From NCBI GenBank assembly GCA_040752235.1, contig JBFMFJ010000001.1, positions 1 through 36,428 of the forward strand: a DNA stretch of 36,428 bases, read 5' to 3'. Below, one piece after another: positions 9,574 to 34,849 of this stretch (position 1 is its first letter; each line of letters begins with the position of its first letter). The stretch comes from Candidatus Zixiibacteriota bacterium. GTDB lineage: Bacteria; Zixibacteria; MSB-5A5; GN15; PGXB01. A program made the translations under genes and the position numbers. The notes under the pieces are model-generated. The model searched no databases. It worked only from the letters and a program-made list of their open reading frames with translations, and had not been told where the DNA came from.

Positions 9574-9628
<55 letters not shown>

Positions 9629-9650
<22 letters not shown>

Positions 9651-10915
9651 AGTTTAAGCCCCTGAAGTTCAACAACTTCGGGGGTTGTGTTTTTCGGGGA
9701 ATTACCTTCAGAAACCGGATTTTCTAACAGTTTTCTAACAAAATTTCCGAAAACTGTTTCATCTAATCTCCGAGCTGCATCATTTTCAAGGTTTGGCATT
9801 AAATGTCCATACCGATCAAGAGTCGTCTTGGCCGACGCATGACCGAGCTGCGATTGTATGAACTTAATGTTCTCACCCTGAGAAATCAGAAGTGATGCAT
9901 ACGTGTGTCGGAGGTCGTGGAAGCGTATCCGGCGTAAGCCTGCTCTGTCCAGTGCGGGAAGAAATTCCCTCTTGATCAGGTTATCGGGATCAAGAGACAA
10001 GCCGTTCTCATTGGAAAAAACCAAGTCCATCTCGGATGCTCTTCCAATGAGGCGGTGCCGTTCAAGCGACTGACGAAGTACCGGGGACATTACTATCCTG
10101 CGGATCGAATTCTTCGTTTTCGGTTTAATGAATTCTCCTCGAAAGATAGAACGTCTAACCGATATTTCGCCGGAATTCCAATCAATATCACCCCATTGCA
10201 GTGCGAGAAGCTCACCGCGCCTCATGCCGGTCATTACCGCCGTCAGAAAAAACGCATAATGATTCGGGTTGACGTGTTCCAGGAATAGCCGGACTTCCTC
10301 CGAAGTGAGAAAATCCATTTCTTCCTGTTCGACGCGCGGACGCTTTACATACAATGAAGGGTCACGTTTGAGGTAACCCCAGATTACGGCGTGCTTGAAC
10401 ATTTCCTTAAAAGGAACCAGCATGTTGACGACAGACTTCGGACTTTGTTTCTCCTTCGTAATCTTATCGGATACGAATTTCTGAATGTCCGAAGTCGAAA
10501 TCCGGTGCAGGAACTGCTTTCCAAAGCAAGGATTCAGGTGAAGCCTCACAATGGCTTTGTAGCTGATATAAGTAGAGCTTTTCACGGAAACCTTGGCATA
10601 ATCGGATAACCATTTGGCGGCAAACTCCTCAAAGAGTATTTTCTCGCACTCCTGATAAGTGCCGCTGTTTATCTGATTCATCCGCTTTGCCAGAAGTTTC
10701 TCTGCGGCTCTCTTGCTGCTACCGGCTCGTTCCCACTTCTGAGTTCCTCCGTCCCGATAAACCGCATACCAAGTATCAGAGCGTAGCACAACGCTTCCTT
10801 TTGCCAATTCGTTCTCACCTCCTTTCCGGTTGGCACGATAAATAAGTTTAATTCCATCCGGCATGACCGATACCGACGGCCTGCCTATGGGTATGTGATA
10901 AATGGTCGAGAGCAT
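9629..10915 (-). CDS. int: Tyrosine recombinase / phage-type integrase
   Basis: C-terminal catalytic blocks FHDLRHTYASLLISQG and LGHASAKTTLDRYGHL, plus an N-terminal SAM-like domain. The true start may be the internal MPDGIKL at 10864. The last 22 nt of the ORF overlap the tRNA. Confidence 0.9.
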
Positions 10916-10949
10916 ACCGCAAGGTATCGATCAGCCGGATGATTGTCAA

Positions 10950-11156
10950 TCACACAGTTTGCGGCACATGCTCCACGCATTTGATCCTCAGGTAATCGGT
11001 TACTTCGGATTCGGAAAACCTTACGTATTTGCCTATTTTGTAATGCGGAATTCGTTCCGGGCCGGATTTTCTCGTCCGGTCGTAAATCCACGACAAAGGC
11101 ACATTCAGTCTTTGTGCCAATTCTTCGGCGGTCAATAAATTATCCACTGTCTCCAT
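10950..11156 (-). CDS. xis: Excisionase / AlpA-type helix-turn-helix DNA-binding protein
   Basis: 68-aa ORF LLTAEELAQRLNVPLSWIYDRTRKSGPERIPHYKIGKYVRFSESEVTDYL, the typical excisionase-family HTH, directly upstream of int. Confidence 0.75.
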   Translation of the reverse strand: METVDNLLTAEELAQRLNVPLSWIYDRTRKSGPERIPHYKIGKYVRFSESEVTDYLRIKCVEHVPQTV

Positions 11157-11163
11157 CCCCTTT

Positions 11164-12942
11164 CTATTGCCAGCGACCGTTTACGATCACTTCTTCCTCA
11201 TGGGTTATATCAACAATTCCAACATCCCGGTGAACAATCTGCAATCGACGTTCTTCGATGAGCCTGTCCACGGTTTGAGCGGGAAGGGCATATTTCTCGT
11301 TGGATAGTCTGACGACCTTCTCGCAGTCTTGCTTTCGCGCCCGGACTTCATCGACGAATGCGGTGAAAATCGGGATCGCCCTATCGTCCTTCAGTTTGAT
11401 TTGCGCATGGCGTTGGGGCTGACACATGATCCAGGCGATGTATTTTTCTCTCATTTCTTCAATGGAGTAAAACTGACGACTCGACAATTCCTGCTCCCGA
11501 ATAAATTCATAAAACGGAACAAGGCTCCTGCTCTCGGATTCCGATTCTCCATTACTTTGAACCTCGCTGAAACTCGAAGATGAGCCTGAGTTTGACATGG
11601 AAAAATCATTCGATGACGAACCGAATGATTCCGAATCCGTTATGGAATTGGTTTCTTCTGAGAAAAAGATATTATCGCCGGGGAAAACGTGATTGGCACT
11701 GCCGGTGCTGAACGAAGCGGACACACCGGAACCTATGCCGGAGCTTTCGGAAATTCCGTCACTTCTCACGTCGCCCTTTGAACGAGACCTCGTTTTTCCT
11801 TTCGTGACTACTTCCCGAACCGATTCGCTCGGAGTCGAAAAGGTATGGAACACCTCATCCTTTATTTGGTCGCCCCGGAATTGACCGGCGAATAATTCGC
11901 CAACCAGTTCCTCACTATCCTGTCTGCTCGACTTGAACGCCACTTTCACGTCGCAGTTGGTCATGACGTTTTCGTAATATCCCGGAATGCGTTTGATCTG
12001 CGTCAGTGTCTGATAACAAAGCGTGAAATAGATTCCGAATTTGCGAAGGGCCTGAAGCGAATATGGTAGATCGTTGGAGGTCAGTTCGGCAGCCTCATCG
12101 GCGATGACGAAAAATGGTTTCCTCGCCTGTTGCTTGGTTCGCTGAAACGAATAATTGATTATTTGATCGACAAGAAGAATTCCCAGTATTTGCTGACACT
12201 CTCGCGAGACTCTCAAAGGAGCGAGATTGACCAGGATGATTTTGCCCTGTTCAATGGCCTTACCGATATCGACGGTCGATTCCTGCTGGCCGATGATTCT
12301 TCGAATCGGATCGGATAGAATCATCTTGGCAGCCCGGTTTAAGGGCGCTTCGATCAGGTTCTCCTGTTCGGCGCGCTTTTTTATGGCGTCAAATCCCTGC
12401 CATTCCCGCTTGACGTACTCATTCCGAACATCTTCCATAACCGATTGACGGTATATCGAACTCGATACCGATAGAAAATCAAGCATATCCGCCAAAGTAA
12501 GATTCGCTTCGATAAGAGACATAAGCAGGTTGCGCTGCCAACGTTCAAGCCTGGGTTTCGTTTCACCCTCCGCTTCTCCGAAGACTTTGGCGATAGCTTT
12601 CATCACCTGTGATGCCTGAGCGGACACATCCATGCCATTCGGGGACAGGAAATTCAGACCCACGGCATTCTCACCGTCGTTGGAATTGATGAGAATCACG
12701 CGATTGCGGAACCCTGCGGCAGTAACGTAAGCCAGCACGTCGTTATACAAAGACCCATGAGGGTCCAACAGTAACAACCCATGATTGTTATCAAGATGAT
12801 ACCGCATACGTGATTCAAGCAATTTACTCTTACCCCTGCCGGTGCCTCCGACGATAAGCCAGTGAAGAAACATATCGTCATAGTCTATGGTCTGGGGCTT
12901 CCCATTCAGGGTGTTATGGCCGACATAAAACTGGTTTGTCAT
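11164..12942 (-). CDS. P-loop ATPase of the TraG/TraD/VirD4-FtsK-HerA type (conjugative coupling-protein-like), soluble, with a Ser-rich low-complexity insert
   Basis: Walker A VGGTGRGKSKL and Walker B FFVIADEA. No N-terminal TM segments. Residues ~381-473 are a Ser/Gly/Glu-rich tract. Confidence 0.7.
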   Translation of the reverse strand: MTNQFYVGHNTLNGKPQTIDYDDMFLHWLIVGGTGRGKSKLLESRMRYHLDNNHGLLLLDPHGSLYNDVLAYVTAAGFRNRVILINSNDGENAVGLNFLSPNGMDVSAQASQVMKAIAKVFGEAEGETKPRLERWQRNLLMSLIEANLTLADMLDFLSVSSSIYRQSVMEDVRNEYVKREWQGFDAIKKRAEQENLIEAPLNRAAKMILSDPIRRIIGQQESTVDIGKAIEQGKIILVNLAPLRVSRECQQILGILLVDQIINYSFQRTKQQARKPFFVIADEAAELTSNDLPYSLQALRKFGIYFTLCYQTLTQIKRIPGYYENVMTNCDVKVAFKSSRQDSEELVGELFAGQFRGDQIKDEVFHTFSTPSESVREVVTKGKTRSRSKGDVRSDGISESSGIGSGVSASFSTGSANHVFPGDNIFFSEETNSITDSESFGSSSNDFSMSNSGSSSSFSEVQSNGESESESRSLVPFYEFIREQELSSRQFYSIEEMREKYIAWIMCQPQRHAQIKLKDDRAIPIFTAFVDEVRARKQDCEKVVRLSNEKYALPAQTVDRLIEERRLQIVHRDVGIVDITHEEEVIVNGRWQ

Positions 12943-12944
12943 TT

Positions 12945-13571
12945 TTACCTCCTTGTTCCCTGCTGAAATAACTGCCGGTCGTAAAATTCCAGCAGTTCAT
13001 CAGCCATGTCGGGGAATTTTTTGTTTACCATTTTGATAAAAGCCGCCCGGTTCATTGCCTTTCTGGTGATGGAATCCAGAATCACCTGTTCTTTGGCCGC
13101 GAACAGCTTTTGTTGCCGTCTGATCTTCAGTAGCTCGTTGAGGTGTTCATCCTGTTTTTCAACGGGCTTATATTTTCCTTTAATCTGCAGCAACCGCTCA
13201 ATGATATCCACTTTCCACATAAGCCTTTCTCGCTTATGATTGACGATTGTCTGCTGTGTCTGTGCCTTGAGTAATCGTAACTTGTTCAGAATATCAGCGT
13301 ATTTTTGATATGTCTCCTCCTTCTTCTCCGCCATAATTAACCCTTGTTCCAGTTCTTCCAGTTGCTGTTGTCGAAAAGCGAGCTGTGCACGACGATTTCT
13401 TTCGTTTTCGATAAGAGTATCGAGCTCTCTGAGAATTTTGCTTCTCTGACTCCAATCAAGCGATTGGTCGTTTTTAACGTGCCGGGTAATTCGGCTTCGC
13501 AGCAATTCCAGAGAGCCAGTGCCGAGCAATTGCTCGGCACTGACATCGTATGTGACCGGGAGCGATTTCAC
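12945..13571 (-). CDS. Hypothetical coiled-coil protein
   Basis: 208-aa ORF, K/E/Q/L-rich with heptad-like character. It is tightly packed between neighbours (2-nt gap downstream, 4-nt overlap upstream). Confidence 0.55.
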   Translation of the reverse strand: MKSLPVTYDVSAEQLLGTGSLELLRSRITRHVKNDQSLDWSQRSKILRELDTLIENERNRRAQLAFRQQQLEELEQGLIMAEKKEETYQKYADILNKLRLLKAQTQQTIVNHKRERLMWKVDIIERLLQIKGKYKPVEKQDEHLNELLKIRRQQKLFAAKEQVILDSITRKAMNRAAFIKMVNKKFPDMADELLEFYDRQLFQQGTRR

Positions 13572-13885
13572 CTCAGCTCCATTTCCAATAGCCGATCGAG
13601 TATTCCCGAATTGTTCGGCGGAAGCATAACCGGTGGTTTTTTCTCTTCTTTTTCAAAGAGCTTGTATACGCCATAGATTGCCAGGCAGACTACCGCACCG
13701 GCAATGATTGAGGCTCCGGCATCCTGATGCCTGTCCTCGGTCAGACTGGTTCTTCTTTCATCCGTCATTTTCGTATCCTCCGAAAAATGGTTAAATGATT
13801 CCGTTGAGTTTTCATTCAACGGGTTTTGCATGGTTTTCCACATATCAAGCTTCTCCATTTCATAAGCGTTATTTGTTTGCATCAA
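13568..13885 (-). CDS. Hypothetical small membrane protein
   Basis: 105-aa ORF with one hydrophobic segment (GASIIAGAVVCLAIYGVY). It overlaps the next gene by 4 nt. Confidence 0.5.
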   Translation of the reverse strand: MMQTNNAYEMEKLDMWKTMQNPLNENSTESFNHFSEDTKMTDERRTSLTEDRHQDAGASIIAGAVVCLAIYGVYKLFEKEEKKPPVMLPPNNSGILDRLLEMELR

Positions 13886-14335
13886 TCTTCTCTATGTTCA
13901 GCCTTGGCGGGCTTTGTCGGGCCCGCCAAAGCGTTTTGTTCGGTTACAAAAAAAGCTTGGGCGTGGGCACAAACCTGTCGGAAGCTCTCGTGTAGTCCGC
14001 AAGCTTCGGGACATCGCCTGTGTCCTGGCTTTTTTTGCCGTTAGTGCATCGCACACCTCCTTCCGCAAGAGTTGTTCTTGCCTGTCGTTGTGCCTTTCCG
14101 CAGTTTTGGACATACCTGCAGAAAGCAAACCACAGCTAACTCTCACGGCCCGAAGGGAATACCCGTCGCGCGGGAGGTGTATTTTTACGGACAAAAAAAG
14201 CCGCAAAATCCCGAATAGACAGACCACTGCTGACTACAATTCGAGATTATGCGACTTAAAAAATTGAGACGCGAACCGTCCCCGGATTACCGGAGACTAG
14301 TTGCTATGATTGTGCTTTTCGCCCAAGCAGGGGCT

Positions 14336-14364
14336 ATAATAAAAAACACAAATTGATTTGTCAA
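14336..14364 (-). promoter_or_regulatory. Strong sigma70-like promoter reading leftwards
   Basis: On the minus strand: TTGACA (14364-14359), 17-nt spacer, TATTAT (14341-14336). The first convincing downstream CDS starts at 13885, implying a ~440-nt leader. Confidence 0.5.
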
Positions 14365-14558
14365 GAAGTTTTTTTACGAAATCAAAAAAATATTTTCAGG
14401 ATACGGCCTCACCGCCTCACCATTCCGTATTACGGAAATCTGTTATGGCGGAGATATCCGCAACCAGGACGTCAATTCCACCGCAATCGCGTCCTGCTTC
14501 CACGGAGTAGCTTGACTCGAATGAGAAGAACGGAATCGATGAGGCAGTGATACCGCGT

Positions 14559-15662
14559 TTACTCAATGAGACTTTGGAGCCCGTGTTCCGGATTTGGGGT
14601 AAGCCAACATTTCGAAAATATCCGTTCCGGTTCTTCGATGCTGAAAGACTGTGGCGGAGTAAACCAAAACAATGAATTCGTTGTAAAGAATTTTCCGAGA
14701 GTAGGAAGTTCCGCGAAGATGCCGGAGACGCGACCGGAAAGACGCTTATCCGGCCCGATCGCTCCGGGTGTAACAAACAGAACCTGAAACCCGGTAATCA
14801 TATTCCGATGTTCCGTGCTGTCGTCGGCGCACACGTCAAGTCCGACAATCTGCCCGTTCGGAAGCTGGCGGTACGCATATCGTTTCAGGAATTTCTGCGA
14901 TTTGCGGTACAATCTGTATCCAACGAGCTTCCGCCTGATGTCGGTGCGTTGCTTTGACGACACAATCGGTTCCGTTCCCCGGTCGATTTCCAGAAAATAA
15001 TGGACATTTCCGCGACCAACCACTTCCAGTCCGAAAAACGCGTCGGCATGAACCGGGAAACGCTCGTCTTCCCCTTTTTCATTGGCTCCGATGACGAAGT
15101 CCCTGATCAGGTCGCCCTGTTCCCAGAAAAGCAGGTTTACCCTGCCCTGCAATTGCTGACACGCAAGTCCCAGAATCGCGCGGAACGTGGCAACGCCCAG
15201 GGCGTGCTGCAGGAACGGTGACTTTACTCTGTTACTTTCGATAATCCTGCGGATTGCCTGAGACCGGACACCGGTCTTTTCCTCAAGGATTTTGGGGCTT
15301 TTGGGTCCCAGACCGTATATCGCCCGCGGCGAGCCGTATCCCCGGCCCATCGGCTGGTCGGTGATATAGTGCCGTTCCAGATACCTGGCGTTGAAAAGCT
15401 GTTTCAGGCGTTTGGATAAGGCCTGCGGGCCGAAACCGTATTGGGTCGGGCGGTTTTTCCCGTCTGAACCGACCGCATACGAAACGCCTGCGGTCTGGTC
15501 TTCCGACTTCAGCAAGTGCCATAGTAACTCGCCGCTTAGAAACCGATGGACATAGACCAGCCTGAGGATCGAAAAATCCCGGTCTCTTAAAACCAGATCA
15601 GGAAAAGCCTCTTTATTCGGGACATATCGCGAGAGTCGTTTCGTTTGGGCGGGTTTGCTCAT
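14559..15662 (-). CDS. Replication-relaxation (Replic_Relax) family protein
   Basis: 367-aa ORF. The N-terminus LVLRDRDFSILRLVYVHRFLSGELLWHLL matches the characteristic winged-helix opening of the Replic_Relax family. It lies next to a coupling-type ATPase, as in other small conjugative or mobilisable elements. Confidence 0.6.
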   Translation of the reverse strand: MSKPAQTKRLSRYVPNKEAFPDLVLRDRDFSILRLVYVHRFLSGELLWHLLKSEDQTAGVSYAVGSDGKNRPTQYGFGPQALSKRLKQLFNARYLERHYITDQPMGRGYGSPRAIYGLGPKSPKILEEKTGVRSQAIRRIIESNRVKSPFLQHALGVATFRAILGLACQQLQGRVNLLFWEQGDLIRDFVIGANEKGEDERFPVHADAFFGLEVVGRGNVHYFLEIDRGTEPIVSSKQRTDIRRKLVGYRLYRKSQKFLKRYAYRQLPNGQIVGLDVCADDSTEHRNMITGFQVLFVTPGAIGPDKRLSGRVSGIFAELPTLGKFFTTNSLFWFTPPQSFSIEEPERIFSKCWLTPNPEHGLQSLIE

Positions 15663-15706
15663 ATCATATAATCCTCATTATTCAATCTTTTCCGTTCTCA
15701 TTCCCG

Positions 15707-16155
15707 GACGCCCCCTCGTCGGCGGCCGAACTCGTCCCGTCAAACCGGACGTCCCGAAGGGCGCCGGTTTACGGCTGACGATTCGTGTCCGCCCGACTTC
15801 GCTCGCTTCGGTCTGCCCCTCCGCTGTCGTAAAAATGCGGGGCAGACCCGAGCTCGGAAACAACTCGTTGTTTCCGGCGAAGCCGAGTGCTCTCTGGCGG
15901 TTCCTGGTCTGTTTCGCATTCCGTTTTTGCACTCACTCTACCGCTTACCCGGTAGAAACAGACCAGGCAGAGAGCCGAGGGAAGGGAGCGAAGTCGGGCG
16001 GAGAACGACATCACGTTCCCTATATTTATCAACAACTTAGTTGTTGTCGAAAGTAGAAACGATAATATATCATTTCTACTTCTAAGAAGCATTACTTTAG
16101 TGCTTCTGGCAAGGGAAAAGTGATGGAGTGAGCCATAGCCCGACGAGGGGGCGTC
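15707..16155 (+). ncRNA. Ornate ~450-nt non-coding element of nested perfect helices (candidate structured RNA; alternatives are ssDNA origin/oriT or a MITE)
   Basis: Closing helix 15707-15722 / 16140-16155 (16 bp, perfect). Second long-range helix 15788-15804 / 15986-16002 (17 bp, perfect). Hairpins at 15810-15819/15839-15848 (10 bp), 15855-15863/15868-15876 (9 bp, ctcg loop) and 15903-15915/15955-15967 (13 bp), the last extended by 15890-15896/15968-15974 (7 bp). Four AT-rich hairpins lie between 16003 and 16107. The three non-Watson-Crick pairs I found inside or flanking helices are G:T on the plus strand, which favours plus-strand RNA. Confidence 0.4.
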
Positions 16156-16162
16156 TTAATTT

Positions 16163-16188
16163 CGACTGCGGAATGAGCAGTCGCTTTT
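16163..16188 (+). terminator. Small hairpin plus T-run immediately 3' of the structured element
   Basis: cgactgc-ggaatga-gcagtcg (7-bp stem) followed by cTTTT. There is no plus-strand CDS upstream, so it would terminate a plus-strand non-coding transcript. A perfect TATAAT at 15667-15672 lies 35 nt upstream of the element. Confidence 0.35.
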
Positions 16189-16331
16189 ATGGAGCTTATG
16201 ATGTTCGACGCTTGCGACAGTAATAGCATAAGTCTCCGAAATCTATCTTTCGTCGGCATACGGAGCATTTCGGTTGCTTCGGATACCGGCCTTGCCGTCG
16301 GCGAAACGGTGTTGCAGTTATTCTTCGCATA

Positions 16332-16868
16332 CTACGGGGCGAGAAGCCAGTTTTTCATTGGCCGGGCGGCGCATACATTTTGACGGATGTAGGTCAGTCC
16401 GACCGCCACGGCATCCAGCGTGTTCAGGTTATGCTGTCTGACCCAGGCGCGGTCGGACTGAAGCAAAACCTTCAATTCATCGAATAAGCCGACCAGCGTC
16501 TGGGCTACCCGTATCTTATTCGCGTTGCCGTCATTGCAAATCTCTTTGCGGATGGTTCTGGGGTCGAATTCGTACACGGGAACCCCGAATTTTCTGGCGA
16601 TATGCTTCATTTCGGAGACGGCAAGGGTCAGACGGTAATTTTGTCTGATCTGGGAAAACGTGTTCCGTTCCAGAACGAGACAATCCGGCGACTTCTCCTT
16701 AACGAGACGGATGACTATTTCCGCCAGGTGTCCCAGTATGGTTTGTTCGGACCCCTGTCTTAAGGTTTTCGTGCCGTAATCCACGAGTTCGGTTCTCTCG
16801 AACGCGGCGAATCCCATGCGTTTCGTGCCGGGATCGATGGCGAGGATTCTGACTTTATTTTTCCGCAT
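16332..16868 (-). CDS. RuvC-like Holliday-junction resolvase / RNase H-fold nuclease
   Basis: 178-aa ORF opening with VRILAIDPGTKRMGFAAFE (compare RuvC ILGIDPGSRxTGYG). The length is typical of RuvC. Confidence 0.65.
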   Translation of the reverse strand: MRKNKVRILAIDPGTKRMGFAAFERTELVDYGTKTLRQGSEQTILGHLAEIVIRLVKEKSPDCLVLERNTFSQIRQNYRLTLAVSEMKHIARKFGVPVYEFDPRTIRKEICNDGNANKIRVAQTLVGLFDELKVLLQSDRAWVRQHNLNTLDAVAVGLTYIRQNVCAARPMKNWLLAP

Positions 16869-17085
16869 ATTTGTTCAGGAGATAGAAGAATAAAGCAGAC
16901 TTCGACTTTTTAATTTTTTCCGTCGGCAGTTTGATCACGTGGTCGAACGCCTTCATAATTACCGCCTCGTCATGTCTTTCAAAGACGTGGCGATACAGAT
17001 CGATCCGTTGTTCCTCTCCGAGCGCTTTGGCGATTTCGGTTGCCAGTTCGTCCTTTGAGGCCGGTTTGGCATTTTTTGTTTCCAT
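16855..17085 (-). CDS. Hypothetical small protein
   Basis: 76-aa ORF that overlaps the RuvC-like start by 14 nt and lies in the operon with the HTH gene. Confidence 0.45.
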   Translation of the reverse strand: METKNAKPASKDELATEIAKALGEEQRIDLYRHVFERHDEAVIMKAFDHVIKLPTEKIKKSKSALFFYLLNKYAEK

Positions 17086-17130
17086 GTTTGTTTTCGTTAA
17101 TGATTTGATTATATGGAAAGTCGTTATGGT

Positions 17131-17391
17131 TTATTCGGGTTGTCTGCCGTACATTTCTTCCCGGATTCTCCTGAAGTGGTCGAGGAAAAGCAATTCGACG
17201 GGAGTTTGCAGGGCGGCGGAGAGCTTCAGCGCGTTCATAAGCGATGGCAATTTCCGGCCGGTTTCCCAAAGATACAGGTCGCAGGGCACTTTGAGGTCGA
17301 GAAGTTTCGAGACGTCCCGCTGCCGAAGATACCGTTTTTCACGGTATCTTCGGATTTGATTCCTCCTGATTGTTTTGAGGTTGCGGGACAT
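17131..17391 (-). CDS. XRE/Cro-C1-type helix-turn-helix transcriptional regulator
   Basis: 86-aa ORF with RRYREKRYLRQRDVSKLLDLKVPCDLYLWETGRKLPSLMNALKLSAAL, an HTH_3-like pattern. Confidence 0.65.
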   Translation of the reverse strand: MSRNLKTIRRNQIRRYREKRYLRQRDVSKLLDLKVPCDLYLWETGRKLPSLMNALKLSAALQTPVELLFLDHFRRIREEMYGRQPE

Positions 17392-17738
17392 GAATTTGCG
17401 ATATTTGTTTTTGTTTTGCTACGTAAACCTAAAACAGGCCGGAGCGACGATCAATAAGCCGAAGTACCACCGACCTGTGGATAACGAGATATATGAATAG
17501 AATAAATGCCCGTGAATAGCCTGTTTCATGGGGGTGGATAAATCCGTAAATGAAAACAGATGATTCTACCCGAAAACGGGAATAAATGCAACCCCTGGTT
17601 TATTGATAGTCAAAACCCAAGAATCGGAGGGTTTGTATAACGCCCAGATATGTTCTATATGACCAAACCTTAATATTAAAGAATACTAAATTACCCGGAA
17701 TAACCTACGGGCACTTCCCAAAACGCATATTATTCAAT

Positions 17739-18764
17739 TTAGTCTTTAACGCAACGAAGCGACAATCCGGATACCTTAGTCGTGCTGTAGCGATTGACTT
17801 CTGAATAATTGTAATACAGAATGCGGGACCACGCAGCATCACTATGGCTTTCGGTTGAAGACCAAAAGTAAGCGTATGTACCCACGCTGTTGAAGTGACC
17901 AATGGAGTTGCGGAGACCACCGGCAAGCGCGGTAAAACCGCTTTCGTTGGTAGCACCTTCGTTGGGGTTAATCCAATGCGCTGTCCCAGCCTCTTTTAGC
18001 TTACCGCCCACATTGAAAATCTTGGCACCACGCCAACCAGTCGTATCAGCCTCGGACCGACTCATACCAAGAAACATTTCCAACTGTTTCCACTCTTCAT
18101 CAGTCGGCACATGCCAACCGACCGGTGCGATATGGCGGCTGTCAGCTACTGCATACCAGTTATACAATCTGCCATAAATGGCGACATTATTTATATTATT
18201 GTCGTAATCACAATAAGCCCCATTGCGTTGGAATGCCCATGAGTCGTCACTTGTGACGTTGGGTATGGCATCGCCATTTCGATAATGAGTTACTTTAAGG
18301 TTCTCTGCCATCCACACCTGATTGCCAATAGTTACCGTTTGATATTCATTGCCATCAATATCGATTACCGTGCTTGCGGAAAATATTGTAGTAAACGACC
18401 TGGGGCTACCATACCCGGTTCCGGCACTGTTCGTGGCATAAGCCCTGACGAAGTAAGTTGTATTTGCAGATAAATTTGTGATTGAACTGGCGAAGATGCC
18501 AGTTCCCGAACCATCGGTGGTCTTACTATCGGCAAGAGTGGGTGTTTGATTGATACTCCAGCACACTCCACGAGCAGTCACGGTTGCACCGCCATCTGAA
18601 GTGATTGTTCCGCCACATTGAGCTGTAGTTTGTGTTATCGCACTGACGGTAGTAGTAGTTAATACTGGTACCGTAATATTATCCGGATTGGTACCCGAAT
18701 CATTCCCGCAGCCAATTATCAACGCGAGAATAATTGTACAAATAAACAAACTAAGAATCTTCAT
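17739..18764 (-). CDS. Lipoprotein with a Fibrobacter succinogenes major paralogous (FISUMP) domain
   Basis: Lipobox LALIIGCGND. FISUMP blocks: WMAENLKVTHYRNGDAI, GRLYNWYAV, APVGWHVPTDEEWKQLEMFLG, AGGKLKEAGTAHW, NESGFTALAGGLR, AYFWSSTE and GLSLRCVKD. Confidence 0.85.
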   Translation of the reverse strand: MKILSLFICTIILALIIGCGNDSGTNPDNITVPVLTTTTVSAITQTTAQCGGTITSDGGATVTARGVCWSINQTPTLADSKTTDGSGTGIFASSITNLSANTTYFVRAYATNSAGTGYGSPRSFTTIFSASTVIDIDGNEYQTVTIGNQVWMAENLKVTHYRNGDAIPNVTSDDSWAFQRNGAYCDYDNNINNVAIYGRLYNWYAVADSRHIAPVGWHVPTDEEWKQLEMFLGMSRSEADTTGWRGAKIFNVGGKLKEAGTAHWINPNEGATNESGFTALAGGLRNSIGHFNSVGTYAYFWSSTESHSDAAWSRILYYNYSEVNRYSTTKVSGLSLRCVKD

Positions 18765-18765
18765 C

Positions 18766-19482
18766 CTACCTCCTTTTCATGAATTGTGTTATTACGGTTT
18801 CATAGTTCTTCCGAATATCTTCAAGACTTTCGGTGCCGTATAAATCCCAGGTCGTCTTGACCGACGTATGCCCCAGAATCCGGGACAGCGATTCGATGCT
18901 TCCCTGTGCGTCCTTCCAGTGGCGAGCGAACGAGTGGCGGAATAGATGACAGGTGATGTTATGGTATTTCGGGTTCGGATTTCCGACGCCAGCGGTTTTT
19001 CCGATGTTTGCCACGATGCGGTTCAACTGCCTGCAACTGAGCCTTCGACCGTATCTGTTCAGAAAAATCGCTCCGTTTGTTCGGGTACCAATCAGGGAAT
19101 GAATGTCCTCCAATACGAAATCGGGAAGCGGCACGATCCGTTGCCTGCTACCCTTGCCGACACGTATCACAAGAAGCTTTTCGTCGTGGAGAACGTCATT
19201 GACGTCCAGTGCCGCGATTTCCGCACGGCGGAGTCCCGTGAAAGCCATGATTTCGATCAATACCCGGTCGCGCTGGCATTGGCTCGCCCTAATGATCTTC
19301 TCTATCTGCCTCAAAGTCAGATGATACTCCGCGTTCGATCCGGTTCTTTTTATCAATCCCTTTCTTCTTTTCCCTATTCTCCTCAAAAGGAGAGATTTCA
19401 CGCTGCCCAAAGAACGCCGGACAATTCCGGCGAATGGTGTCGAGCGTCCCAGTATTCCAGAAACGGGACGTTTATTCGGCAT
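18766..19482 (-). CDS. Short tyrosine recombinase (XerC/D-like)
   Basis: 238-aa ORF with GLRRAEIAAL, HLFRHSFARH and LGHTSVKTTWDLY catalytic blocks. There is a 1-nt gap to the lipoprotein gene. Confidence 0.8.
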   Translation of the reverse strand: MPNKRPVSGILGRSTPFAGIVRRSLGSVKSLLLRRIGKRRKGLIKRTGSNAEYHLTLRQIEKIIRASQCQRDRVLIEIMAFTGLRRAEIAALDVNDVLHDEKLLVIRVGKGSRQRIVPLPDFVLEDIHSLIGTRTNGAIFLNRYGRRLSCRQLNRIVANIGKTAGVGNPNPKYHNITCHLFRHSFARHWKDAQGSIESLSRILGHTSVKTTWDLYGTESLEDIRKNYETVITQFMKRR

Positions 19483-19948: not shown

Positions 19949-21619
19949 TTGAATCGATATATGATATCGTATTTCGTTTACGCCAGAAAATCCACGGAAT
20001 CCGGGGACAGACAAGCGCTGTCGATTGAAGCTCAAATAAATGAGCTGACATCGCTGGCACAAAAAGAGCAACTCAAGATAGCAAAGATATTCACCGAATC
20101 GCAATCTGCCAAGAATTCCGACCGACCGGTGTTCGGTAGTATGGTCAATGAACTGAAGCGAAACCGAATCCGGGGTATTCTCTGTTGGAAACTAGATAGA
20201 CTGACCAGAAATCTATCGGACGCGGCAAGGATATCGGACCTCCTGGAAAAAGGCGTTATCGACGAAATTCGAACACCCATGCAGATTTACAGAAACAACA
20301 GCATTGACCGGCTCATGAGCGGCATTGACTTTTTATTCGCGCGAAAATTCATAGATGACCTTTCGGAGAACGTGAAACGAGGGCTTAGACTCAAGGTGCA
20401 ACAAGGCTGGATGCCTGGAAGAGCGCCTATCGGATACTTAAGCGATCAGGCGGATAAGGGTTTTCGAAAAATCATCCCCGATCCCGAACGTTTTCCTCTC
20501 ATTCGCAAAATGTGGGATATGATGCTGAGCTGTAATTACTCCGTACCGCAAATATTGAGTATTGCCAATAAAGAATGGGGATTCAAGACCAGAAGAACAA
20601 AAAGACATGGGGCGGCGCCTTTATATAAAAGCACGCTATACAAGGTATTTACCGATCCCTTCTATTACGGCTGCTTTGTCTATCAGGGGGAGCTTCATCA
20701 AGGAAAACACAAGCCAATGGTTACCTTCGAGGAATTTGAACAAGTTCAGCAACTGCTCGGAACCAATAATAAATCCAAGCCTCAGGAACATACTTTCGAT
20801 TTTACCGGTCTTTTTCGATGCGGGCAATGCAATTCCCTAATAACCGCGGAGCGAAAATATAAGCTTCTCAGATCGACCAATGTGAAAAAGTCCTATATCT
20901 ATTATCATTGCACGCACGGGAAAAATCCAGACTGTCAGCAAGGATCGGTGACTGACATTAATTTGCTGGATCAAATTGACGGATATTTATCGAAAATAGC
21001 CATTCCACGGGAGCACCTGGAATGGATATTTAAATACTATGATGCTGTGTCTTCCCGAGAATTAAACAAAACTGAAAATGAAAAGCGGTCTATAAAAAAA
21101 GAATTGCAGTCCATCGACAAAAAGTTACAGAACCTGATGAATCTTAAAATAGCCCCGGAGAATGAAGATAACCAGTTGCTATCCGATGAAGAATACCTTA
21201 AACAAAAAAACAAACTTATACAGGAAAAACAGAGCCTAGACTACTCGCTGAACAATTACGATAAAGCAAACATGGAAATGCTTTCTCTTACCAAAGAGAC
21301 ATTTGAATTGTCTGCCTACGCCCGAATCTGGCTTTGTAAAGGGGACAAACAGCGGAAACAGACCATCATACGAAAGATATTCTCGAACCGGAAAATAGTG
21401 GATAAAACTGTGCTAATGAAAGCCAAAAGACCTTTTGAGTTAATTTCTGATATCCAATTGCCGTCGAATGGAAAAATAAAAACTTTCGAACCGACAAAAT
21501 ATGGCTTAGATAACACACAATCCGGCATATATGATGACGGATTATGTGCTCTCCTCCGGCAACTGGACGACATTAGAACTGAAATAGTGAAAATGGCCAA
21601 GGAAAACGGTCAAATATAA
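19949..21619 (+). CDS. Large serine recombinase (resolvase domain, recombinase domain, zinc-ribbon and coiled-coil)
   Basis: N-terminal YARKSTESGDRQALSIEAQ (catalytic Ser), LCWKLDRLTRN, Cys clusters CGQC...CTHG...C, and a C-terminal coiled-coil. An alternative start is MISYF at 19961. Confidence 0.85.
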   Translation: MNRYMISYFVYARKSTESGDRQALSIEAQINELTSLAQKEQLKIAKIFTESQSAKNSDRPVFGSMVNELKRNRIRGILCWKLDRLTRNLSDAARISDLLEKGVIDEIRTPMQIYRNNSIDRLMSGIDFLFARKFIDDLSENVKRGLRLKVQQGWMPGRAPIGYLSDQADKGFRKIIPDPERFPLIRKMWDMMLSCNYSVPQILSIANKEWGFKTRRTKRHGAAPLYKSTLYKVFTDPFYYGCFVYQGELHQGKHKPMVTFEEFEQVQQLLGTNNKSKPQEHTFDFTGLFRCGQCNSLITAERKYKLLRSTNVKKSYIYYHCTHGKNPDCQQGSVTDINLLDQIDGYLSKIAIPREHLEWIFKYYDAVSSRELNKTENEKRSIKKELQSIDKKLQNLMNLKIAPENEDNQLLSDEEYLKQKNKLIQEKQSLDYSLNNYDKANMEMLSLTKETFELSAYARIWLCKGDKQRKQTIIRKIFSNRKIVDKTVLMKAKRPFELISDIQLPSNGKIKTFEPTKYGLDNTQSGIYDDGLCALLRQLDDIRTEIVKMAKENGQI

Positions 21620-21734
21620 GATATTCGTCAAGAGACCCGACAGATAAACTTTCATCCATTATATCAAACCCTAGCGGTATCCACAAACCGGTGGGAGTTC
21701 CGCCATTCAAACCACATTTATGGGGACTGAGTAA

Positions 21735-21771
21735 ATAAAAAATGCTCCGTGCCATTGTTGGGCGCGGAGCA
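21735..21771 (-). terminator. Intrinsic terminator of the M23/T9SS gene
   Basis: On the minus strand: 9-bp hairpin (21763-21771 / 21743-21751, one mismatch) followed by TTTTTT (the 21737-21742 A-run on plus), 27 nt past the stop codon. Confidence 0.65.
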
Positions 21772-21797
21772 AGGAAATAATCTAATGTAGTTGCCTC

Positions 21798-24659
21798 CTA
21801 TTTCAGCAAGAGCATCTTTTTTGTTTCTGTAACCTCGGCAGTTTGAATTCTGTAGAAATACACGCCGGATGCGTACTTTGCGGCATCCCAGGTGATCGTA
21901 TGTTCACCGGCCGGTTGGTCGGCATCCATGAGCGTTTCCACCTTTTGCCCAAGAATGTTGTACACATCGAGCCGGACATGCGTAGCCTCCGGCACGGAGA
22001 ACGAAATCACGGTTGTGGGATTGAACGGGTTCGGGTAATTCCGGGACAGAGAGAAGCCAGACGGGAGGATTTGCTCCTCGGAGTAGGCAACCTTCGGGGA
22101 ACCGCCAGGACCGTTGAAATGGCCTGCGACCATCGCAATTTCCTTCAATGGATTGTAGTCGGTCCGCATCCACCAGCCGTCGTACCCGCCGGACATCGCG
22201 AAAGAAGAGCCGGTACTCCGGAATACATGGAGCCGAACGCCCGTGGAGTCATACATCATGCACACGTCCGGAATATTATCTCCGGTAAAATCACCAGATG
22301 CCACGTGCAGAATTTTATCTGCTTCGTAGTTTTCAGGCGGATTCCACCAGATCTGGTAGTAGGCGAAGGACGAACCTGTTGAACGGAAGAAATGCAGCCG
22401 GGTCAAATGCCCCTCACCGCCGGAGCGGTAGCCCATGTAATACGCCAGGGTAACATCGTCAATGCCGTCATTGTTGAAGTCGTCGGATACTGCGCCGTGC
22501 ACTCGGGCAGCTTCATAGCTGTCAGGGGAGCTCCACCACCCGGCATAGCCGTCCATGTCGAACGAGGAGCCCGTAGAGAGAAACATATGGAGCCGGGTCA
22601 GATACCCTTCTCCGGTGTCGCGATACCCCATGTAGTACACGATGCAGATATCGTCCGTGCCGTCATTGTCGTAATCCCCGGAGGTAAAGCCGTAGATATG
22701 TTCTCGGTAGTAGCTCATGATGCCGTCAGAATCCCACCAGGTCTGCTTGGTGAACGAGGAGCTTCCGTTGGACAGGAACACGTGCAGGAGGAGCCTGCTC
22801 GAAGTTTCTGCGTAGAGAACGGCGACGTCTTCGTAGCTGTCGCTGTTGAAATACCCGGAAACCATGCCCACAACCTTGGCTGGATCGTAACCCGAGGTGC
22901 TGAGCCACCAGCCGGTGCTGCCGGTCCAGTCAAAATCCTCGCCGGTCGAGAGGAACACGTGCAGACGGCGTGATGCGGAGTAGTTATACATATTAACCAC
23001 ATCATCATTCCCATCGCCATTAACGTCGGCCGAAACCGTTGCAAGTACATCGCTGATATTGTAGTTCGTGCTCATCCACCAGCCGTACTTGCCCTGGAAG
23101 TCGAAAGAGCCGCCATTAGACAGGCACATGTGAATCCTGCTCGAAGTGCCGCCGTAATCGTACCAGGTTGCAATGTCGGCGTAATGGTCGCCGGAAGGCC
23201 CGCCAGCAGAACCGACCTGATTGTTCCAGATTTCCGTACCCGCGCGGTTGTACACCCGCGTGATGCCATTGTCATCGACCATCCGGCCATACTTGAAGTA
23301 CTGGGTGCCGCTGAAACGGTCCGATGTCGGAGCACCGAGCGTATCAGGCATCCATACGTACTCACTCTTCGCGGGATTCCAGACCTTACCGAACGAGAAC
23401 GCATTGTAGAAGCCGCCATACACATAGTAAGCCAGGTTGTTACCAGCATGACCCCATCCTTCAACATCCACCCATGACTCTGGGTCATAGACGATAATGC
23501 CTTCGCCGTTCGTACCAAAGTCGTAGCGCTGAGCGTGATAGCTTGTACCTTGCCAGTTAATGTGAATCTTTTGTAGCGCACAACCGACGCCAACTCGTGC
23601 ACCATTTCTCTCATAGCAGTCTGCAATGAGGTAGGACCATTGCCGGTTCCAGCCGTCATCGGTCCAGCCGGGAGCGTAGGTAGGTAAATCGTTTACCGGA
23701 CCATAACCTTCGATAGTTATTTCATACGGCTGACGACCTTGGATATATTCGAGATACCCGAGCTGGAAATCCTGCCTGGCATGGCCTGCGCCAAGTTCAT
23801 ACTCGTTGGTAACGGGCATTCCGAAACATCCCGAAGGGCCATCATTTTCCGACCAGCCGTGTCCATAACCATCAGCCCAGAAACCGGTGCGAACGGTATA
23901 TGCCTGACGGGTGCCGCCCAGGGCATCATATACGATTCCGCTCCGGCTGAAAGTGCCTCCTGAATAGTCTCGGATATAGCAAGTATTGCTGGTATTGTAT
24001 TCCTCATCATATAGGTTATCAGGGGCCCAGGTTTCGTAGCCACCATACCAGTGGATATCTTGGAGCACTGTACCGAAGTTGGTACTACCGCCGTTGGCCG
24101 TGTATTCCAGGTCGATGATGTTGGAATTTTGAGAAGTGCACTGCTGATCTTCGACGGGTACCCCGACATCGTCGAATGAAGTCTGGATACTTGACCCGTT
24201 AAGTGTACTTTGAATCTGAAAGTGCACATGATAACCGGTTGAATTGCCGGTAGTCCCACAAGTTCCAATGACCTGGCCCTGTTGGATAAGCTCTCCTCTT
24301 CTGACAAATACCTGCTCCAAGTGACACATACGCGCATAGGTCCCATCCGACAATGCCAGAATTACATAATTACCCCATCCACTTGTACAACTTCCACATT
24401 GGAAGTAGCATTCTGCCACAGTAGCGTCCATCGGTGCGACAAGCGGATGGTTTATGTCGGACGAACCAAGTATATTGAAGTCCCAGGCATAAGCCATGCC
24501 GTACTCCGACCAATGGTCGTAGTCGCCATAGTGTGGAGCGTTGTTCCCTTGTGAACAAGTCCATTGCTCGCCACTCATCATTGGCATTTTGATTCCTGCA
24601 TTAACAGCCAGTGCTGTCAGCTGAGACATCAAGAACACTAATAGCATCCGTAGCTTCAT
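21798..24659 (-). CDS. Secreted M23 metallopeptidase fused to FG-GAP/VCBS-like repeats and a T9SS (Por) C-terminal sorting domain
   Basis: Start moved to MKLRMLLVFLMSQLTALAVNA (ATG 24659, aggag RBS upstream). M23 block GTCGTTGNSTGYHVHFQI. Five or more DxNxDGxDD repeats (DVNGDGNDDV, GDYDNDGTDDI, DDFNNDGIDDV and others). C-terminus NYPNPFNPTTVISFSVPE...ASGVYFYRIQ...KKMLLLK. Confidence 0.85.
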   Translation of the reverse strand: MKLRMLLVFLMSQLTALAVNAGIKMPMMSGEQWTCSQGNNAPHYGDYDHWSEYGMAYAWDFNILGSSDINHPLVAPMDATVAECYFQCGSCTSGWGNYVILALSDGTYARMCHLEQVFVRRGELIQQGQVIGTCGTTGNSTGYHVHFQIQSTLNGSSIQTSFDDVGVPVEDQQCTSQNSNIIDLEYTANGGSTNFGTVLQDIHWYGGYETWAPDNLYDEEYNTSNTCYIRDYSGGTFSRSGIVYDALGGTRQAYTVRTGFWADGYGHGWSENDGPSGCFGMPVTNEYELGAGHARQDFQLGYLEYIQGRQPYEITIEGYGPVNDLPTYAPGWTDDGWNRQWSYLIADCYERNGARVGVGCALQKIHINWQGTSYHAQRYDFGTNGEGIIVYDPESWVDVEGWGHAGNNLAYYVYGGFYNAFSFGKVWNPAKSEYVWMPDTLGAPTSDRFSGTQYFKYGRMVDDNGITRVYNRAGTEIWNNQVGSAGGPSGDHYADIATWYDYGGTSSRIHMCLSNGGSFDFQGKYGWWMSTNYNISDVLATVSADVNGDGNDDVVNMYNYSASRRLHVFLSTGEDFDWTGSTGWWLSTSGYDPAKVVGMVSGYFNSDSYEDVAVLYAETSSRLLLHVFLSNGSSSFTKQTWWDSDGIMSYYREHIYGFTSGDYDNDGTDDICIVYYMGYRDTGEGYLTRLHMFLSTGSSFDMDGYAGWWSSPDSYEAARVHGAVSDDFNNDGIDDVTLAYYMGYRSGGEGHLTRLHFFRSTGSSFAYYQIWWNPPENYEADKILHVASGDFTGDNIPDVCMMYDSTGVRLHVFRSTGSSFAMSGGYDGWWMRTDYNPLKEIAMVAGHFNGPGGSPKVAYSEEQILPSGFSLSRNYPNPFNPTTVISFSVPEATHVRLDVYNILGQKVETLMDADQPAGEHTITWDAAKYASGVYFYRIQTAEVTETKKMLLLK

Positions 24660-24729
24660 ATGAAGCTCCTTTCTCCTTTGGACAGCCTCTATTCCTGTCC
24701 TGTTTGATGTCAAAGAGCATTATTACTCT

Positions 24730-25404
24730 TTATTTTAGTTTGATTTGTTCTATTATTGATTCAAATATCTGTGATTGAGCTTGAGAGTCGATGGGATAGC
24801 TGATCCACATTTCCTCATACATGGTGCCGCTATTTAAGGGCGAGAATAAGTACCGACGAATATTATCTGGTGCGCTATTAGTCGTCGTGCGCGTGGTTTC
24901 CACAATACGAGTTGGTTTCTCGTCGATCTTGCCCTGTGTTTCTGAAGTAGTTTGCTCGGTTTCAAATCCAGTAGCACGATTGCTTATAACCATTTCACCC
25001 GATACGCGTGAGTCTGTTATTATAATTGTAAATGAAGGGTATGTCGTTCCATTAACTACTGTAGTTGAAACGTATTGTTCCTGAATAGTGGCTGTTGAAG
25101 GAATTGCAATGCTAAATGGGACAACATCGTTTGTATATGTAGTCGGCCCACTAATAGTGATTGCCGCGTTCGTATTATCATTACTTACAGAATTCGTATT
25201 AGAGGCATTGTTCGTTATTATGGGAATATTAGCATTTGCTCGCTCATTAACATTCAAAGCGACGTTCAAATTATCAGAATTATCATTTTCAGAGCTTGTA
25301 AAATACGCATAAATCCCATATCCGGCGATAACCAGGATAGCTACCAATAAAACTGCCCCGAGCGCTCTGGGCATTGGGTTGTTGGCTCTTGGTTGGTTTT
25401 CCAT
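24730..25404 (-). CDS. Hypothetical membrane-anchored protein with an Asn/Thr/Ser-rich ectodomain
   Basis: 224-aa ORF with a single N-terminal TM segment (LGAVLLVAILVIAGYGIYAYF). No recognisable motif. Confidence 0.5.
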   Translation of the reverse strand: MENQPRANNPMPRALGAVLLVAILVIAGYGIYAYFTSSENDNSDNLNVALNVNERANANIPIITNNASNTNSVSNDNTNAAITISGPTTYTNDVVPFSIAIPSTATIQEQYVSTTVVNGTTYPSFTIIITDSRVSGEMVISNRATGFETEQTTSETQGKIDEKPTRIVETTRTTTNSAPDNIRRYLFSPLNSGTMYEEMWISYPIDSQAQSQIFESIIEQIKLK

Positions 25405-25546
25405 AGGTATTGTATTAATAGTCTTATTTCTTCATCCTACCAAACCGGTTAGCTTAGTCAATCCCTGTGAACTCGAATAATTCCCTAAATGGAAAAGAAA
25501 ATCCGCCGTTCCCGGCGGTTTCAAGAAGAGTGATCCTTGCAATCCT

Positions 25547-26332: not shown

Positions 26333-26522
26333 AATGTTTCTCCTTCGTTAAACGGGTTTTTGGTTCCTTCACCCACAGGCAAGAGGAACCCAAAAATCCG
26401 CGAGAAGGAGAAATCCCCCTACGGGAACAACTAAGCAAATATGAAATTACGCTCGATTATTAAGCGAGGCCACGATGGTCATTATGTCTGTGAGTCGAAC
26501 TGATGCGCAGTATATACTTAGG

Positions 26523-28954: not shown

Positions 28955-28955
28955 A

Positions 28956-32320: not shown

Positions 32321-32733
32321 CCTTGTTTCTCTCTGGTTCTTCTGGTCTTCCAAACTGCCATGATTTGCGGAAACCGTTCCCTCAAATCATGCTCCCAATA
32401 TCTAAATATTTTCCAGTCATGGTTTTTGTAATATCGTGATACTTCTCCGTCTCTTCTTCTATTTCGCGATATTTTCTGTTTCCAAAACTCTTTTCTAGTT
32501 TCGGGTAGCTGACAATGTTTCTTGCATCCGTGCCAAAAACAGGAGTCGAGAAATATCACTATCTTGCGAGACTTGAGGAGAATATCCGGTTTGCCGAAGT
32601 AGCCTGAGGGGTTTTTGCGATATCGATATCCGAGTTGCCAAAGAGCTTTGCGAAAATCCACTTCCATTTTGCTGTCGCGATCTCTTATGCGCGACATGAT
32701 CTCGCTTCTCTTAGTTTTACTTACCTTGTCCAT
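32317..32733 (-). CDS. vsr: Very-short-patch repair endonuclease
   Basis: 138-aa ORF with RSEIMSRIRDRDSKMEVDFRKALWQLGYRYRKN, GKPDILLKSRKIVIFLDSCFWHGC and WEHD, which are canonical Vsr blocks. Confidence 0.9.
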   Translation of the reverse strand: MDKVSKTKRSEIMSRIRDRDSKMEVDFRKALWQLGYRYRKNPSGYFGKPDILLKSRKIVIFLDSCFWHGCKKHCQLPETRKEFWKQKISRNRRRDGEVSRYYKNHDWKIFRYWEHDLRERFPQIMAVWKTRRTREKQG

Positions 32734-32736
32734 TCA

Positions 32737-34780: not shown

Positions 34781-34849
34781 GTGGCCCTTCAAAATTACTA
34801 CGCCCAGATACAATTCCAGCGCGTCATAAACAGTTTATCGCATTTATAT

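Follow-up and report, generated by a model that had tools for sequence, protein, structure and literature searches.

Between the genes for a Replic_Relax-type relaxase and a RuvC-like resolvase, a contig of a Candidatus Zixiibacteriota bacterium (JBFMFJ010000001.1) carries a set of nested inverted repeats, and the question that this locus raises is which molecule they shape: an RNA, a folded strand of DNA or a double-stranded site. The stretch of 36,428 nucleotides analysed here, positions 1 to 36,428 of that contig, is referred to as the window. A preliminary description of it had taken the whole 670-nt gap between the two genes as non-coding, had drawn the repeats as a closed multi-branch structure and had ranked a large structured non-coding RNA (ncRNA) first among the explanations. 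The part at 15663-16195 (533 nt) is indeed non-coding, but 16196-16330 holds a conserved zinc-ribbon open reading frame (ORF). The structured element itself, a closed three-domain fold, occupies 15706-16156 on the plus strand. It belongs to a new family, of which at least 37 distinct full-length members are now known, all sharing a strongly selected, strand-specific structure of about 450 nt. We consider it probable, at roughly 60%, that the element is the gene for a new large structured ncRNA and a fixed part of a mobilisation module. Judging from the genes around it, the carrier is most likely a family of small tRNA-integrating mobilisable elements with a MOBC/Replic_Relax relaxase and a VirD4-like coupling protein.

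A stable fold conserved by selection

The helices named in the preliminary description were all recovered in the sequence. The 16-nt arms at 15707-15722 and 16140-16155 are 100% complementary, the 29-nt arms at 15788-15816 and 15974-16002 are 86% complementary and hold a 17-bp core, and 15903-15915 pairs perfectly with 15955-15967 over 13 bp. Three G:T pairs reported earlier (15706:16156, 15752:15761 and 16092:16100) were likewise read directly. Folded as RNA, the plus strand reached a minimum free energy (MFE) of -259 kcal/mol, as compared with -170 ± 7 kcal/mol in dinucleotide shuffles (z = -12.9). The minus strand gave z = -11.95 against its shuffles, and DNA folding parameters gave z = -15.4. 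As a control, two other intergenic gaps in the same mobile element were folded and proved unremarkable (z = -2.7 and -2.2). The structured element measures about 450 nt, or about 480 nt with the 3' hairpin T1, and reaches about 600 nt in relatives. It has at least 13 helices and two multi-helix junctions, is closed by long-range helices and combines cores that never vary with tips that are hypervariable; the arms of the closing helices lie 170-430 nt apart, and the longest helices have 18-24 bp.

Covariation was analysed on an RNAalifold consensus of 73 pairs from 37 distinct full-length sequences, in which helix P1 closes the whole structure, P3 closes domain B and P4 closes domain C. Compensatory double changes were present at 51 of the 73 consensus pairs, the kind of change in homologues that had been proposed as support for the helices. 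The proportion of paired cells was 96.1%, as against 83.1% in shuffled alignments and 39-48% when the structure was slid by 1-3 columns, and the corresponding covariation scores were 0.412, 0.166 and 0.07-0.12. None of 500 shuffles matched the observed value on any of five measures. Variable hairpins, which MAFFT had misaligned, were tested without an alignment. When each homologue was given its own MFE structure, P1 and P3 formed in 37 of 37 sequences, P4 in 36 of 37 and every hairpin in at least 36 of 37; P4c was kept as a hairpin in 34 of 35 sequences despite unrelated sequence.

Domain C was also folded alone, and the closing helix with exactly three hairpins appeared in 33 of 34 sequences. 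What had been described as four AT-rich hairpins is thus a four-way junction, with P4 closing three hairpins. On the covariance-model alignment of this domain, double changes were found at 28 of 33 pairs, and none of 500 shuffles reached the observed values; the model (R1) gave a single match per element-bearing locus. These results indicate that the fold is conserved by selection. A coding origin of the conservation was rejected: indels are not multiples of three, the variation tracks the helices, and the overlapping ORFs are not conserved.

Three domains closed by one long-range helix

All parts of the element are described on the plus strand. A pyrimidine-rich leader runs from the relaxase start codon to P1 (15673-15705). 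In most relatives this leader bears a small covarying hairpin, P0, with variants such as CCGGC-TTG-CCGG, CCCGC-AAA-GCGGG, CCAAC-TTG-TTGG and similar; the window and the related locus L001 are without it. P1 (15706-15723/16138-16156), the long-range helix that closes the whole structure, has compensatory changes at 7 of 11 consensus pairs and 98% of its cells paired. Domain A (15724-15785) consists of P2 (15727-15736/15777-15785) and the hairpin P2a (15737-15754/15759-15774). Its P2 helices are 100% paired with double changes at 6 of 9 pairs, and 20 of the 37 relatives have an extra hairpin inserted in P2, after GCCGAAAG.

Domain B (15786-16004) is closed by P3 (15786-15809/15981-16004), a helix of about 24 bp with double changes at 12 of 19 pairs. 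It encloses P3a (15810-15819/15839-15848), P3b (15852-15863/15868-15878) and P3c (15887-15896/15968-15976 plus 15903-15915/15955-15967), a long hairpin with a hypervariable tip and double changes at 8 of 11 pairs. In domain C (16005-16137), the AT-rich four-way junction, P4 (16009-16021/16112-16125) closes P4a (16030-16036/16040-16046), P4b (16051-16064/16068-16081) and P4c (16085-16094/16098-16107), and a conserved junction, GGAGUGA, follows. The flanks ACGAC...GGAGU (16005-16010/16126-16130 in the window) prolong P4 via a tandem G-A/A-G mismatch in most sequences; in one relative, L061, the tandem mismatch is replaced by Watson-Crick pairs. Two further pairings were considered and dropped: a kissing loop between the P4a loop (CUUA) and the T1 loop (UAAG), checked by eye, whose partners are not consistently co-present, and an alternative pairing GCUUCGG/GCGAAGC, which is not kept in relatives.

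Three cores never vary, namely CCCGACU/AGUCGGG in P3, GUCG/CGAC in P1 and AAGUAGAA/UUCUACUU in P4b. The pentamer CCGAC is 4.4-fold enriched over shuffles and is located in the invariant P3 and P1 cores, at the junction of domains B and C and at the base of T1; CGAC sites lie at 15794, 16006, 16141 and 16163, and inverse GTCG sites occur in addition. The invariant cores and the CCGAC enrichment suggest a sequence-specific recognition on top of pairing, and CCGAC may be a protein recognition motif or be related to a nic site.

The functional molecule is a single strand of plus polarity

On the 73 consensus pairs, G:U cells outnumbered A:C cells by 91 to 13 (binomial p = 1.4e-15), in agreement with the plus-strand orientation proposed in the preliminary description. 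One conserved position has G:U more often than any other pair (15 of 37 sequences). These cells were counted on the RNAalifold pairs; a first ratio, for which the MFE structure of the window had been projected on the raw full-length MAFFT alignment, was noisy and uninformative because the variable hairpins were misaligned. In an alignment-free comparison, the plus strand had the lower MFE in 32 of 37 sequences, with a mean difference of -11.4 kcal/mol (Wilcoxon p = 2e-6). Covariance-model scores were about 60 bits lower on the minus strand, which is partly so by construction. From the asymmetries in wobble pairs and MFE we therefore conclude that the functional molecule is a single strand with the plus polarity of the window, divergent from the relaxase gene and convergent with the zinc-ribbon gene.

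This polarity argues against two readings of the locus. The element might be a double-stranded DNA (dsDNA) site, either a MOBC origin of transfer (oriT) or a group of cruciform-forming inverted repeats that are substrates of the RuvC-like resolvase. The oriT of MOBC systems such as pAD1, oriT2, has a large inverted repeat beside the relaxase gene, the relaxase of the window has a winged-helix domain of the dsDNA-binding type, and a RuvC homologue is usually adjacent. A cruciform or palindromic site, however, predicts no strand asymmetry, in place of the 91 G:T and 13 A:C cells counted. At least 12 independently covarying helices, conserved unpaired junctions and hypervariable loops are unlike protein-binding palindromes, and the element is kept in six loci that lack RuvC and the zinc-ribbon gene. 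We regard a dsDNA site as very unlikely; an oriT may lie inside or beside the element, at P0 or T1/T2.

In the second reading the fold would belong to a minus-strand mRNA, as a leader in the relaxase 5' untranslated region (UTR) or a spacer in the zinc-ribbon 3' UTR, and would regulate the relaxase in cis. The element does lie between co-oriented minus-strand genes, the minus strand folds well too (z = -11.95), and a strong promoter for the relaxase was not found. On the minus strand, however, the 91 wobble cells turn into A:C mismatches, the MFE is worse in 32 of 37 sequences and the covariance-model scores, read with the reservation made above, are lower, which leaves a faint chance for an mRNA leader.

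No match to described families

We compared the element with known RNA families and mobile elements. At the gathering threshold, Rfam 15 found only tRNA in the window, and at E ≤ 10 the region of the element returned chance matches to microRNAs and long ncRNAs far under threshold. Scans of 17 relatives were negative as well: 16 related loci gave no match, and L063 gave only chance matches at E ≤ 5. The element is thus outside the families of Rfam 15, including OLE, GOLLD, ROOL, HEARO, raiA, group I and II introns, RNase P, tmRNA and 6S, in line with the earlier statement that it resembled no known RNA family. A blastn search of the element against PLSDB (72,556 plasmids) and 50,697 phage records gave no match, and a pattern scan of IMG/VR with a 21-base gapped motif gave 0 matches. 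The CS-6 motif (TAGCGW) of the single-strand origin (sso) type ssoA was present in 2 of 37 sequences, at chance positions. No -35/-10 boxes like those of Frpo are conserved in the stems, and the sole sigma-70-like match inside the fold (16044-16073) is not conserved. In the literature we found no RNA or structured element described for Replic_Relax/MOBC genes or for the host phyla.

RNA or single-stranded DNA

We then turned to the signals on both sides of the fold. A candidate divergent promoter, TTGGGC-16 nt-TATAAT (15645-15672, plus strand), overlaps the reverse complement of the relaxase start codon (CAT, 15660-15662). It scored 9/12 in a scan that does not cover promoters of the Fibrobacteres-Chlorobi-Bacteroidetes (FCB) group, and as a promoter of the element it is suggestive only. 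The TATAAT at 15667-15672, to which attention had been drawn before, is present in the window and is not conserved as such. What recurs is a looser TAnnnT: of about 28 loci, 12 have it beginning with the T of CAT and about 20 have it within +2 to +13. The -35 box is poorly conserved.

At the other end, the hairpin and TTTT earlier noticed at 16163-16188 correspond to T1 (16163-16169/16177-16183, followed by CTTTTAT to 16189, plus strand), a candidate intrinsic terminator that is joined to P1 by a pyrimidine-rich linker. Relatives have a second 3' hairpin, T2 (AUUYCAAUC/GAUUGRAAU), before the U-run; T2 is deleted in the window, where the T-run stands directly after T1. Of 35 loci, 26 have a hairpin with a T-run within 110 nt of P1 on the plus strand, as against 3 on the minus strand; the terminator count is inflated by the generally T/C-rich sequence 3' of P1 on the plus strand.

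Several points weigh against an RNA, and some of them favour instead a fold that acts as single-stranded DNA (ssDNA). In that case the plus strand would be displaced or transferred after nicking by Replic_Relax, and the fold would either offer a priming site, in the manner of an sso, or mark the transferred strand for recognition or termination. The strand asymmetry cannot separate RNA from ssDNA, because G:T is the most tolerated mismatch in DNA, and the strand-specific fold is equally favourable with DNA parameters (z = -15.4). All genes of the mobile element lie on the minus strand, hence plus is the template strand, the one that F-like systems transfer. The element also adjoins a predicted nickase, whose action would make ssDNA in need of a priming signal. 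As for the RNA itself, its promoter appears weak and just loosely conserved, and the terminator count is inflated as stated. No tertiary motif (GNRA/receptor, K-turn or pseudoknot) was demonstrable; in an all-against-all covariation scan for pseudoknots, phylogenetic two-state signals dominated and no tertiary pair could be claimed.

The sso elements offer a precedent for such a DNA fold: they are orientation-specific, depend on structure over sequence and, in ICEBs1, lie beside the relaxase gene (PMC4595007). The CCGAC pentamers enriched in the invariant helix cores would, in addition, be possible protein sites. By contrast, the element has at least 13 helices in three domains, whereas described sso elements have about 150-300 nt and one to three stem-loops. 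Arms 170-430 nt apart would be hard to pair on ssDNA coated with single-strand-binding protein. The CS-6 motif of ssoA is absent, there is no similarity to PLSDB plasmids or phages, the plus-strand terminators (26/35 versus 3/35) would have no role in an sso, and G:U is the commonest pair at one conserved position. A single-strand origin or transfer signal, put second in the preliminary description, remains the only serious rival, possible and yet doubtful; its Frpo variant is unsupported, as there is neither a helix of promoter length nor a pair of conserved boxes.

An ncRNA gene remains the explanation best supported by the data, through the covariation, the G:U asymmetry, the terminator and the lack of an Rfam match. 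The recurring TAnnnT box and the precedent of sgm-sRNA, an RNA factor of the island SGI1 (PMC9299015), speak for it as well. Size and branching appear typical of large ncRNAs and far more elaborate than those of described ssDNA origins.

Strict co-inheritance with a relaxase subfamily

To follow the element beyond the window, we collected 110 relaxase homologues of 41-93% identity and scanned genome and metagenome collections, which yielded 94 loci. The element was detected by blastn, nhmmer and the domain C covariance model, and in L018 and L069 by inspection. It was found directly upstream, in a single copy, at every locus with a relaxase at least 42% identical and enough upstream DNA. About 45 loci carry it in the same position relative to the relaxase gene, with relaxases of 42-93% identity, and its DNA is alignable even at about 50% identity of the relaxase proteins. 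Where relaxase identity falls to about 25%, the element is absent and the gene for the coupling protein comes next upstream; a regular expression for the P3 core gave only chance-level matches in distant relaxase loci. Six loci without RuvC and the zinc-ribbon gene retain the element, with the surrounding synteny otherwise conserved. The element is therefore strictly co-inherited with the relaxase subfamily, and its link to the RuvC-like gene is not obligatory.

The fixed position bears on another proposal. A miniature inverted-repeat transposable element (MITE), or nested insertions of palindromic repeat elements, would account for the perfect terminal inverted repeats, P1 and P3, one of which is nested in the other. 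Yet there is one copy in the 36-kb window and one per locus, and across about 45 divergent loci, with relaxase identities of only 42-93%, its place relative to the relaxase gene is always the same. Moreover, the "terminal repeats" covary, and there is no target-site duplication. A MITE, ranked third in the preliminary description, is thereby refuted.

By their records, the hosts of the element are Zixibacteria, Ignavibacteria, Bacteroidota, an "uncultured archaeon" and a Methanosarcinaceae metagenome-assembled genome (MAG), and Patescibacteria are among the names of the relaxase homologues (P0061 and P0093). Two contigs binned as archaea (L006 and L014) contain both the relaxase and the structured element. 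The occurrences in archaea and the candidate phyla radiation reflect either very broad transfer or mis-binning. One Zixibacteria MAG contig (L005) is 99% identical to the window. A 4.46-Mb Zixibacteria contig (JAWLBI010000001.1) bears the whole mobile element twice, as L017 and L019, at a distance of 2.2 Mb; the two copies have a relaxase and a structured element of their own and are without RuvC and the zinc-ribbon gene.

The mobile element and its genes

The window contains a small integrative mobilisable element with a module of relaxase and VirD4-like coupling protein. A tRNA-Met gene (9574-9650, plus strand), detected in the Rfam scan of the window, is overlapped by the 3' end of a tyrosine integrase gene (9629-10915, minus strand), which marks the left end of the integrated element. 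The genes for the VirD4/TraD-like coupling ATPase (11164-12942, minus strand) and the Replic_Relax (MOBC-type, PD-(D/E)XK) relaxase or nickase (14559-15662, minus strand) share the mobilisation module, and the latter is divergent from the structured element. On the other side lie a 44-amino-acid basic zinc-ribbon ORF (CxxC...CxxC; 16196-16330, minus strand), convergent with the element, and the gene for the RuvC-like Holliday-junction resolvase (16332-16868, minus strand), a common but non-obligatory neighbour whose product is a true RuvC homologue. The zinc-ribbon ORF is coupled to the RuvC-like gene, its start being one base past the RuvC-like stop codon. Its product is very basic (MRRITATPFRRRQGRYPKQPKCSVCRRKIDFGDLCYYCRKRRTS) and could bind nucleic acid; the ORF is kept in most related loci and is gone together with RuvC in the six loci mentioned above.

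Around the element, the genes that run leftwards are those for the type IV coupling protein (T4CP) ATPase, three small unknown ORFs, Replic_Relax, the zinc ribbon (across the element), RuvC, a 76-amino-acid ORF, Fib_succ_major and a second tyrosine recombinase. The order common to loci L001-L070, corresponding to 9574-19482 of the window, is int2, (Fib_succ_major), orf76, RuvC, the zinc ribbon, the element, the relaxase, a variable segment, orf105, orf208, T4CP, int1 and the tRNA. This conserved order appears to delimit a mobilisable element about 10 kb long, in which there are two tyrosine recombinases. A second copy of the tRNA 3' end, as expected of an attachment (att) site at the right border, was not found within the window.

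The relaxase matches Pfam PF13814 with 52.6 bits (cut-off 25.3), and its residues D207, E225, D227 and K245 are invariant across 31 sequences. Its PHROG annotation is "replication initiation by nicking". PF13814 has been equated with MobC (PMC5357655), and Replic_Relax has been assigned the PD-(D/E)XK fold (PMC3424549). An AlphaFold (AF2) model, with a predicted local distance difference test (pLDDT) score of 87, has an N-terminal winged helix; a Foldseek search with this model returned just winged-helix regulators and a weak FokI match, and nothing related to RNA. An exact-sequence look-up of the protein found no record, and tblastn of the relaxase against PLSDB found no match.

Elsewhere in the window, in the gap between orf76 and Fib_succ_major, a perfect 13-bp hairpin CCGAAGATACCGT/ACGGTATCTTCGG followed by ATTTGATT (17323-17353, plus strand) resembles a terminator; the remainder of that gap is without unusual structure (z = -2.2). 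The mobile element is adjoined by a recombinase and defence island (19949-36157). This island contains genes for a large serine recombinase (19949-21619), an M23 peptidase with a type IX secretion system (T9SS) sorting tail, an ArdC-N anti-restriction protein (25547-26332) and two C5 methylases, together with a 936-amino-acid double-HATPase protein and its unknown 468-amino-acid partner (27548-31766), HhH-GPD, Vsr, the HaeII endonuclease and AbiEi.

A model for the predicted RNA

If the element is an ncRNA gene, we infer that the RNA is transcribed rightwards, divergent from the relaxase, and that its weak promoter lies across the start codon of the relaxase gene. It would start 10-45 nt upstream of P1, fold into three domains closed by P1 and end at the hairpins T1/T2. 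The RNA might work with the relaxosome at an adjacent transfer origin, for which P0 or T1/T2 would be speculative candidate nic regions, and might there assist the restriction-endonuclease-fold relaxase in structure or in recognition. Its 5' leader would be antisense to the relaxase 5' UTR, which is purine-rich, and might thereby act as a cis-antisense brake on relaxase translation.

A bolder version makes the RNA an obligate cofactor of the MOBC relaxase. In such a ribonucleoprotein relaxosome an RNA of about 500 nt would provide origin recognition, strand handling or piloting, work that HUH relaxases do by covalent attachment. MOBC relaxases are PD-(D/E)XK nickases for which we know of no covalent intermediate. 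We hold this version to be unlikely. With at least 37 full-length sequences, a consensus structure, the strand and the boundaries now in hand, the nature of the element is directly testable.

Comparison with known systems

By genomic context, the closest analogue is found in the island SGI1, where sgm-sRNA is encoded between a relaxase-like gene and oriT and is essential for transfer (PMC9299015). There, an RNA lies next to a relaxase-like gene in an integrative mobilisable element, as the predicted RNA does here. The sgm-sRNA does not act like a classical regulatory small RNA; it is small and is processed from the 3' end of an mRNA (PMC9299015). Its partners MpsA and MpsB are tyrosine-recombinase-like, not PD-(D/E)XK proteins, and it has no homology to the element of the window.

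By kind, the closest relatives are OLE, GOLLD, ROOL, HEARO and raiA, which likewise run to several hundred nucleotides in more than one domain, covary heavily and vary at the tips around invariant cores, and which were also discovered in metagenomic data; GOLLD and ROOL are in addition carried on mobile DNA (prophages and plasmids). None of these RNAs matches the element in sequence or structure, and the element differs from them in being tied to a MOBC-type relaxase gene.

Among DNA elements, sso1 of ICEBs1 and the types ssoA, ssoU, ssoT and ssoW share with it a strand- and orientation-specific fold beside a nickase or relaxase, in which structure counts over sequence (PMC4595007). The element of the window exceeds them two- to threefold in size, branches far more, has no CS-6/RSB motif or plasmid similarity and is followed by plus-strand terminators. 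Frpo and single-strand initiation (ssi) sites resemble it as folded elements of the transferred strand near the oriT of a conjugative or mobilisable element. According to Masai and Arai (1997), Frpo is reportedly a single long hairpin, imperfectly paired, with -35 and -10 boxes restored in its stem, whereas the helices described here have at most about 24 bp and no conserved promoter hexamers in their stems.

The oriT of MOBC systems (pAD1 oriT2 and CloDF13) is comparable in its inverted repeats and its position directly upstream of the relaxase gene, and FinP, the antisense RNA of transfer operons, in that the 5' leader of the element would be antisense to the relaxase 5' UTR. pAD1 oriT2 consists of one inverted repeat of about 140 bp and short direct repeats, and FinP has 79 nt; neither has a covarying multi-domain fold of about 450 nt.

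The element thus belongs to none of the compared systems. New large, heavily structured bacterial RNAs are rare, and OLE, GOLLD, ROOL, HEARO and the omega RNAs each opened unexpected biology. The relaxases to which the element is strictly bound, those of the MOBC family, are poorly understood, and here they are carried by small mobilisable elements in uncultivated phyla. Should the element act as ssDNA, it would surpass every described single-strand origin or signal in size and complexity, and it would be the first from beyond Firmicutes and Proteobacteria. If it is an RNA, as we think probable, it would be the second RNA factor in a DNA-mobilisation module after the sgm-sRNA of SGI1, and by far the most elaborate.

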